Virus record (IMG/VR): IMGVR_UViG_2534681979_000017
Coordinates: 1-4,544 of that record
Source of the DNA: a virus
Lineage: Duplodnaviria > Heunggongvirae > Uroviricota > Caudoviricetes
Strand: one strand, 5' to 3'
Length of the DNA: 4,544 nt
Made by a program: the position numbers. How positions within the stretch are numbered: position 1 is the first letter of the stretch; each line of letters starts with the position of its first letter. Shown piece by piece: positions 3,001 through 4,544 of the stretch.

Positions 3001-4544
3001 TAAACGAATTAATGCAGGCGATCGCAGGGGAGCGTGTGAAGCGATTCGCTGGTGGATTAAGGACGGTGGCAGAGACTGCCGTATCCGCTCAAATAACTGT
3101 TATGGTCAGGTATCCCGTCGTGACCAGGAGAGCGCGCTGGCGTGCTGGGGAATCGACAGATAAGCAGAATATTTTGCTGAAAAATAAGGTATGGCCACGC
3201 GGGCGGATAACACGAAATCCTGCGAACTGGCGAAACGTAAGTGAATAAAAGTAAAAACCCCGTTTGTTGGCAGCAAGCGGGGTTTTGTTTTTATGGCAGT
3301 AAGCTATGGGAGGCTGCCTTGATTGATTTTAGCAAACTGATTAGGGAGTTGCGACTCATGATTAGTCAATTACCAAACTGGAAATTTTTGCTGGTCTGGA
3401 GCATCCCTTTTTTATGGGTAGTATCCCAGTTAATTGTGGCAATTAAGGGGTAGCTATGTCAGACAAACTCATAACGCCGGCAAAGGTCCTGTGTGTGATT
3501 GTCGGTATTTCATTTTCACTAATGCTGGTTGCTCTTTTTCTGTCCATCGCCTGGGTGATGTTGTCTTCGTCGGGGCTGCTGGGGTGACAGTGACTGATGA
3601 CATCAGCAGAGCGCTGGCTTTTGCTATTAAGTGGGTGGCTGTTGGTATTGCTGTGTCTCCGATGCTGTATGGGCTGGCAAAACTGGTCATTGCGCTGAAA
3701 TCGTGAACTTTAAAAAGATGAGTGCTGAACTTATTCGGGCAATGGCATTTGCCATTCGTATTGTGGCCATTGCTGTTCTGGTCTGGACAATCCGTTGGTG
3801 GTGATATGAACCGTGTTCTGTGTGTGGTGATTATTGTCCTGCTGGTAGCCTGTGGTGTGCTTAGTCTGGGGCTGAATCATTACCGTGATAACGCCATTAC
3901 CTACAAAGCCCAGCGCGACAAAAATGTCAGAGAACTGAAGCTGGCGAACGCGGCAATTACTGACATGCAGATGCGTCAGCGTGATGTTGCTGCGCTCGAT
4001 GCAAAATACACGAAGGAGTTAGCCGATGCGAGAGCTGAAAATGAAACTCTGCGCGCTGATGTTGCCGCTGGTCGTAAGCGCCTGCGGATCAACGCCACCT
4101 GTCCAGGCTCCGTGCGTGAAGCCCCCACCACCTCCGGCGTGGATAATGCAACCGGCCCCCAACTGGCAGACACCGTTACACGGGATTATTTCACCCTCAG
4201 AGAGCGGCTGATGACGATGCACAAGCAACTGGAAGGGGCACAGGACTATATCCGCACTCAGTGCCTGAAATAAGTTTTGTTGATGCGCCGTATCGTCGCT
4301 GTATTCCCTCATTAACAGAGACCGCAGCCCGACAGGGAGACTCCTCTGCGCGAGTGTGCGGGGATAATCAAAAACGATACACACCGGGGTTTACCGCGTT
4401 AACGGAGCGCGGCGTTGTCCCCTCATAGTCGCCTGTCCGGTGCGATGGTGGAAGAAGCCGGATGTTTATCACTATTAATTGATGACACAGAAATGGATTC
4501 ATTGAATTTCAGCACGTTTTTGTATTCGTGTTATTGAACATCTG

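Follow-up and report, generated by a model that had tools for sequence, protein, structure and literature searches.

Single-helix membrane-peptide genes at the endolysin-spanin boundary of a lambdoid prophage of Escherichia coli

Small membrane proteins in and near phage lysis cassettes

The gene for LysA of phage P2 lies between the endolysin and spanin genes and encodes a non-essential membrane protein of about 140 aa with several transmembrane (TM) segments, which has been implicated in lysis timing. Here we describe four small open reading frames (ORFs), called A, B, C and D, that occupy the same slot in a 4,544-nucleotide stretch of viral DNA (IMG/VR record IMGVR_UViG_2534681979_000017, positions 1 to 4,544; hereafter the window), which ORF reading, the NCBI Prokaryotic Genome Annotation Pipeline (PGAP) and Pfam identify as the late region of a lambdoid prophage of Escherichia coli. 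Unlike LysA, A to D are four independent single-TM genes, with no fused ancestor among 86 related loci or database homologues. The type I toxins Hok, Ldr, Ibs, TisB and ZorO are also small proteins with one hydrophobic helix, and A to D resemble them in size (28-44 aa) and in that helix; in contrast to type I loci, A to D show no sign of a promoter of their own or of an antisense RNA and appear to form a coupled operon inside the late phage transcript.

Among the described systems close to this one is Lcc6 of the Shewanella prophage LambdaSo, a 65-aa single-TM protein reported to be required for lysis by a pinholin and a signal-anchor-release (SAR) endolysin (bioRxiv 10.1101/2024.01.23.576932). 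Like A to D, it is a small single-TM phage protein found with a pinholin, SAR endolysin and spanin system and has no homology to known holins. Lcc6, however, is reported to be essential for lysis and is encoded near int/xis, far from the cassette, whereas A to D are dispensable and lie inside it. The same preprint describes releasin gp25 of phage Mu (original paper PMC9239132), which, like the extra holin-like proteins LydC and LydD of phage P1 (PMC9025707), is an additional small membrane protein that accompanies a SAR endolysin and adjusts its release or timing. A to D show no sequence similarity to LydC, LydD or releasin and differ from them in size and topology, and Pfam detects neither DUF2730 nor a holin family in them.

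A to D are already catalogued as hypothetical proteins and fit this general kind of small phage membrane protein in or near lysis cassettes. All are hypothetical in PGAP annotations (B as 43 aa, C as 51 aa, D as 28 aa and A sometimes as 70 aa) and in RefSeq (WP_001043230.1, WP_001280935.1, WP_042004856.1 and WP_032140280.1). In PHROG they fall into families of unknown function, A in 6632, B in 4906, and C and D in the related families 1115, 4493 and 3246. Searches of Pfam, NCBIfam and the defence-system resource PADLOC returned no match for any of them (Pfam and PADLOC at E<=1), and in the same Pfam run, in which the true holin of the window (1152-1367) scored 9e-33, no holin family reached E<=1 for A to D. 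A literature search on genes between R and Rz found nothing relevant, and none of the A to D peptide or DNA strings occurs in the supplements of a ribosome-profiling paper on small genes of enterohaemorrhagic E. coli Sakai (PMC5597208). In the K-12 prophages Qin and DLP12, R abuts Rz and homologues of A to D are absent; K-12 small-protein datasets are therefore not applicable. The new elements are a comparative argument for selection on all four genes, corrected gene models, the A-B pairing, the definition of a C/D family and the evidence for module shuffling. We conclude with high confidence that A to D are four real, independently evolving single-helix membrane-peptide genes of three families (A, B and C/D), shuffled as modules into the endolysin-spanin boundary.

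Gene models, selection and modular exchange

The R stop codon ends at 3163 and the Rz ATG begins at 3806, leaving a 642-nt gap that on direct reading holds four hydrophobic ORFs on the same strand. The packing reported in the sequence-only reading, four ORFs in about 640 bp separated by 2 nt, by an overlapping GTGA, by 11 nt and, before Rz, by 1 nt, is borne out, as are the sizes given there for B, C and D; that given for A is probably too small. When the segment 3296-3805 was shuffled 2000 times with dinucleotide composition preserved, at least 95% plus-strand ORF coverage (the real value is 95%) arose in 1.2% of shuffles, and at least four ORFs with a hydrophobic 17-mer in 0.35%. Hydrophobic 17-19-mers are present in A, B, C and D, all of which sit between R and Rz.

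ORF A (3319..3453, plus strand) has an amphipathic N-terminus followed by one TM helix, and its homologues, searched for with the 70-aa PGAP form as query, occur in four genera. The 13 residues upstream of ATG 3358, IDFSKLIRELRL (xDFSKLIRELRL), are kept in the Salmonella, Providencia and Cronobacter homologues; a Shine-Dalgarno (SD) sequence, GGGAGG at 3308-3313, stands 5 nt before TTG 3319; and the PHROG 6632 profile, which the 70-aa form matches at 1.3e-12, has 45 positions. On these three grounds, ORF A is probably a protein of about 44 aa starting at TTG 3319, rather than the 31-aa form from ATG 3358 that was read earlier. The start codon is TTG in the window, ATG at locus L143 and GTG at L144, each behind an SD. 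The 70-aa PGAP model from GTG 3241 was rejected, as its N-terminus crosses a terminator and is not conserved in other genera.

ORF B (3456..3587, plus strand) runs for 43 codons from ATG to TGA, beginning 2 nt after A with an SD (AAGGGG) 5 nt upstream, and matches PHROG 4906 at 1.3e-21. Its one TM helix contains a strongly hydrophobic 19-mer with a summed Hessa score of -3.5, within a family of 106 protein clusters, the intact members of which are mostly 43-44 aa; G17 is invariant and S21 near-invariant (G17xxxS21). ORF C (3584..3706, plus strand) encodes 40 aa from GTG 3584, which overlaps the TGA of B as GTGA, or 38 aa from GTG 3590, and ends in TGA. It belongs with PHROG 1115/3246/4493 (6.4e-25 for the 40-aa form, 2.6e-42 for the long form found elsewhere) and represents a 48-aa family, MKNGLExxAPVTDDIS...ALKS, of which it is a copy shortened at the N-terminus. 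In an AlphaFold2 model of the C family, a short helix at the N-terminus is followed by a single helix of 38 residues; the predicted local distance difference test score is about 90 over the last 30 residues. Both A and C carry long, weaker hydrophobic stretches that are rich in Ala, Gly and Ser and contain internal Lys. The current PGAP start calls for A and C (70 and 51 aa) thus look wrong, comparison favouring 44 and 38-40 aa.

ORF D (3718..3804, plus strand) is the shortest, 28 aa from ATG to TGA, separated from C by 11 nt and from the Rz start by 1 nt. It matches PHROG 4493 (5.8e-6; 1.4e-24 for its long form) and belongs to a subtype ending in ...IRWW, of which long forms of 37 and 50 aa occur at other loci. 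The 28-aa form is the cluster representative P0242, and its short MSA(E/D)xIRA start is found again in clusters P0227, P0242 and P0243. The hydrophobicity of D and of A-like ORFs is moderate.

Selection was assessed by Nei-Gojobori counts between divergent copies, expressed as the ratio of nonsynonymous to synonymous proportions (pN/pS) with a one-sided Fisher p. The signal for C is seen between E. coli and the Salmonella loci L133, L136 and L138 (pN/pS 0.13-0.21, p from 1e-8 to 9e-8), where 14-22 of 21-31 differences fall at third codon positions. For A, comparison of the window with L143 and L144 gave a pN/pS of 0.23 (p=1.4e-5 and 4.1e-5). The ratio for B was 0.40 between the window and L143 (p=2e-4) and 0.24-0.55 within E. 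coli (p=0.012 and 0.021 in the two pairs tested), and that for D was 0.36-0.43 between the window and loci L007 and L033, with p=0.019 for the L007 pair. The other two plus-strand frames and two of the minus-strand frames gave ratios from 0.55 to above 1 without a significant synonymous excess, or contained stops; the antisense frame that shares the same wobble positions showed a weaker echo of the synonymous excess, as expected. All four frames thus show purifying selection, and the ORFs are genes rather than remains of a longer one. Two further ORFs show no selection of their own and were discarded: a 33-aa alternative-frame ORF inside C (3597-3698, plus strand), which is a by-product of the hydrophobic coding frame and is interrupted or rearranged in relatives, and a 73-aa minus-strand ORF (3469-3690), which spans B and C, blocks that are rearranged elsewhere.

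The relationship between C and D is clear at the protein level (35% identity over 26 aa by BLASTP, E=2e-4) and weak in DNA, where a single match of 15 nt at 80% was detected. The long forms from relatives are 50% identical over 42-44 aa (E ~1e-12). Given this difference between protein and DNA similarity, C and D are old paralogues that diverged within one family and have separate orthologues elsewhere; they were brought together by module shuffling rather than by local duplication. The motif shared by C and D in the sequence-only reading therefore holds for protein and only weakly for DNA, and the internal duplication proposed from it was misleading. A search of 1.8 billion representative sequences returned only 25 C/D family members at E<=1e-3. 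In their common design, MK(N/D)GLExxAP is followed by a run of acidic character, the motif A-x-AFAI(K/R)-x-VA and a hydrophobic helix, and the C-terminus is ...ALKS (C type) or ...(I/V)RWW (D type); C and D of the window are without the MKNGLE...AP head. A C-terminal (I/V/L)RWW motif is common to A-like and D-like families.

With Rz as anchor we collected 86 loci, comprising 50 distinct R-Rz intervals in eight layouts including that of the window. Thirty-three loci, the window among them, have the 642-nt interval with A, B, C and D. A 297-298-nt interval, found at 26 loci, holds an A-like ORF of 32-33 aa ending in IRWW; one of 478-491 nt, at 19 loci, holds a long form of C (48-60 aa) and then B; and one of 335-336 nt, at four loci, holds a long form of D (37-50 aa). 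The remaining layouts were each seen once: 0 nt without ORFs, 426 nt with A and B, 1413 nt with a 232-aa ORF followed by A, B, C and D, and 1426 nt with C, B and then a large unannotated ORF. Pairwise blastn showed that the blocks in common coincide with the ORFs (3456-3587 for B, 3590-3707 for C); the order is B-C in the window and C-B in the 487-nt type, and a phage carrying the Shiga toxin (Stx) gene type Stx1a has R, a 231-aa ORF, A, B and Rz. Among 5426 complete E. coli genomes, 2071 match the interval in part or in full, 587 of them with at least 80% coverage, and the E. coli collection has 4826 matching places; matches also occur in 77 phage records, 41 of which are Stx-converting. In about 30 further assemblies of unrelated taxa (L090-L129, including Kitasatospora, Brevibacillus, Bacteroidetes and Chromatiales metagenome-assembled genomes), a lambda-type Rz is present at the same 72% identity, usually on a short contig of low coverage; the source is probably contamination by lambda control DNA.

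These comparisons bear directly on whether the four ORFs could be the frameshifted remnant of one multi-TM protein like P2 LysA, an alternative raised by the sequence-only reading. Four hydrophobic segments in different frames within about 490 nt, at a position analogous to that of P2 lysA, would fit such a remnant, as would two rare fused database proteins, P0039 (a C-B read-through of 96 aa) and P0093 (a B-C frameshift of 83 aa). No relative, however, has one ORF over all four, and no single ORF of 130-150 aa crosses the interval in the 86 loci or in database homologues. The fusions join only two neighbours and are singletons, which is consistent with rare mutations or sequencing errors and not with an ancestral long gene; the remaining database entries of 83-105 aa have been called from starts too far upstream, so that they read through the terminator or through B in the wrong frame. 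Each ORF is found alone or in other orders, the homology blocks coincide with start and stop codons, purifying selection is seen in each frame, and orthologues of conserved length exist in other genera. The remnant explanation is thus refuted by the criterion that the sequence-only reading itself set, and the competing proposal of that reading, genuine small membrane-protein genes, is upheld by the selection in all four frames and by the comparison with homologous prophages it called for, in which the ORFs recur as units in other layouts and contexts.

Outside E. coli cassettes of this type, locus L143 carries A-B with the same junction of stop, 2 nt and ATG, after an M15-peptidase endolysin and holin_8/holin_3_7 genes. 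In Providencia, A follows a CHAP-domain protein, and in Salmonella, C lies between Rz and a 161-aa lysozyme with a hydrophobic N-terminus, behind an HP1-type holin. The Salmonella prophage in which a C-family gene precedes Rz carries, in addition, a hydrophobic ORF of 34 aa that overlaps the 3' end of its endolysin gene (L133, 2708-2812). Family members also follow tail-fibre genes (L136 and L137); a tandem pair of C-family paralogues follows a nanS-p-like gene (L138, 2805-3168); a C-like and A-like pair ending in LRWW lies among tail genes (L140, 547-827); and two tandem ORFs end in IRWW at L141 (325-737). Retention of the RWW ending outside lysis cassettes indicates a feature of the protein and not only of the Rz ribosome-binding site.

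The last point is relevant to a further possibility, that the ORFs are kept mainly so that translation couples Rz after a terminator-bearing insert parted it from R, the peptides themselves being without function. In the layouts checked, the upstream ORF ends 1-11 nt before Rz, and the Rz ribosome-binding region GGTGGTGA shares nucleotides with the ...RWW codons, as this explanation would predict. We nevertheless consider it improbable, given the amino-acid-level constraint in all four ORFs, the retention of the ...IRWW ending where no Rz follows (L140 and L141) and the position of A, B and C, which are not next to Rz in the window.

Expression signals and possible roles

The R 3' untranslated segment (3164..3253, plus strand) is where allele variation is concentrated: 22 of the 30 variable sites among 13 near-identical 642-nt alleles fall within 3179-3237, just upstream of an intrinsic terminator. 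This terminator (3254..3296, assigned to neither strand) consists of a strong hairpin, with a 15-pair stem, followed by GTTTTT, with its inverted repeat at 3254-3286 and an A tract before it, and is possibly bidirectional. It lies directly 3' of R, inside the late operon and upstream of the small ORFs. Only one gapped variant lacks the hairpin, which the others keep with G-U or compensatory changes; in PhiR5_1 (L003) a different GC-rich inverted repeat followed by TTTGT stands at the same place in an alignment read by eye. A search for covariation in the R 3' untranslated region supported the terminator hairpin alone. A consensus scan found no plus-strand promoter-like site in 2400-4544 and one minus-strand site with an extended -10 (3462-3433), against a shuffle mean of 2.3, which is no more than chance. 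Taken with the upstream terminator, the SDs and the tight coupling, the apparent absence of an own promoter leads us to infer expression only from the Q-antiterminated late transcript.

The same signals bear on a suggestion of the sequence-only reading that the peptides are type I toxin-like membrane poisons, under the control of an antisense RNA that the open minus strand would encode. The peptides are small and hydrophobic (28-44 aa), the hairpin at 3254-3286 with its A and T tracts could also end minus-strand transcripts, and the minus-strand promoter-like site has the extended -10. This explanation is nonetheless quite improbable: there are fewer minus-strand sites than shuffling predicts (1 versus a mean of 2.3), the -35 of the one site is altered at the L143 A-B junction, the whole window has no Rfam match at E<=1, and known type I loci do not resemble a coupled, operon-like array that ends in Rz. 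The open minus strand, which the sequence-only reading named as a place to search for an antisense sRNA (3469-3690), is a by-product of the hydrophobic coding frames; the B and C blocks that it spans are arranged differently in other variants, and it is not kept as a unit.

As to function, we tentatively propose that A to D are late-expressed, dispensable inner-membrane modulators of lysis. The proposal draws on the repeated placement of these genes after endolysins of three unrelated types, on their presumed co-expression with lysis proteins and on the precedents described above. The A-B pair and one or two genes of the C/D family have been recombined into the endolysin-spanin boundary of a phage-21-type cassette with a class II holin and a SAR-like lysozyme, where they are translationally coupled to each other and to Rz. 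Under the proposed model, they would be co-expressed with holin, endolysin and spanin and have the Q-antiterminated late transcript as their only source. Through helix-helix contacts, the peptides might then set when or how the holin triggers, or the behaviour of the membrane-tethered endolysin or spanin. A bolder version, which we regard as unlikely, would make A-B and C/D portable single-helix lysis-timing adaptors for unrelated cassettes, whether these combine a pinholin and a SAR lysozyme or canonical holins and an M15 peptidase; the adaptors would bind the TM helices of the holin, the endolysin anchor or the spanin and be swapped by temperate enterobacterial phages to retune lysis time.

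Several observations weigh against a role in lysis. The genes are dispensable, and close cassettes exist with none of them (L116, L125, K-12 Qin and DLP12) or with only one. Broken copies occur, with a stop in A (L004) and frameshifts in B (L081 and L087) and C (L025), as would be expected for dispensable genes in decaying prophages. Searches of Pfam, NCBIfam and PADLOC revealed no similarity of A to D to holin, antiholin, releasin (DUF2730) or defence families, and neither experiments nor expression data turned up for any of these genes. As L143 illustrates, A-B is not confined to pinholin/SAR systems. At L136-L141, C/D- and A-like genes are found apart from endolysins, next to tail or nanS-p-like genes; the post-endolysin slot may therefore be merely a permissive insertion site.

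This last idea is central to the main rival of the lysis-modulator proposal, in which A to D would be lysogen-expressed accessory genes ("morons") that provide host benefit or superinfection exclusion unrelated to lysis, the junction being a tolerated insertion site. We consider this a serious but rather less probable explanation. In its favour are the presence/absence polymorphism and shuffling among near-identical cassettes, the occurrence of family members in non-lysis late contexts (tail-fibre, tape-measure and nanS-p-like genes) and the high frequency of the interval in pathogenic E. coli. The same slot also accepts other genes: a 231-232-aa ORF occupies it in PhiR5_1 (annotated as hypothetical) and in the Stx1a phage (unannotated), records of P13374-type O104:H4 phages have ant there, and L025 has a large ORF that is unannotated. 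Lysogenic expression is harder to reconcile with the consensus scan, which found no plus-strand sigma-70-like promoter between R and Rz, with an intrinsic terminator placed upstream and not downstream, and with tight translational coupling into Rz; nor was there a PADLOC match to any of the four.

The surrounding cassette and biological significance

The remainder of the window has the arrangement of a phage-21-type cassette. At its start is the C-terminal part of a DUF6645 ORF (37-1002), which by context belongs to the NanS-p-like esterase family and lies directly upstream of the holin, as in Stx-type prophages; in the Salmonella locus L138, a homologue with SASA and DUF6645 domains is followed by two C-family small ORFs. 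The holin gene (1152..1367, plus strand) encodes a 71-aa class II, phage 21 S-type protein (Pfam PF04971, E=9e-33; "class II holin family protein" in PGAP). Between S and R are a 260-aa DUF1327-containing ORF (1372-2154) and, on the minus strand, a conserved 104-aa ORF (2187-2501, WP_000551290.1). The DUF1327 (YdfR-like) match is confined to the first 100 of the 260 residues, and the equivalent ORF in strain 55989 is a truncated pseudogene according to PGAP.

The endolysin R (2630..3163, plus strand) is a 177-aa lysozyme (Pfam PF00959, E=5e-25). Its N-terminus is Ala/Gly-rich and weakly hydrophobic, with the hydrophobic segment at residues 5-21, and it would accordingly be classed as SAR-type. 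Downstream of the small genes, Rz (3806..4273, plus strand) encodes a 155-aa i-spanin (Pfam PF03245, E=7.6e-49), within which the o-spanin gene Rz1 is embedded (4026-4211, lipobox VVSAC).

In conclusion, A to D provide a clean example of genes of less than 150 nt behaving as independently shuffled modules, which bears on how small phage genes are annotated. If A to D tune lysis, they would affect the timing of the phage burst and, in Shiga-toxin phages, the release of toxin. Should the portable-adaptor version of that proposal prove true, these peptides would represent a class of lysis regulators that is widespread but had gone unrecognised, found in over one third of complete E. coli genomes and also in Shiga-toxin phages, where toxin release is governed by the timing of lysis.

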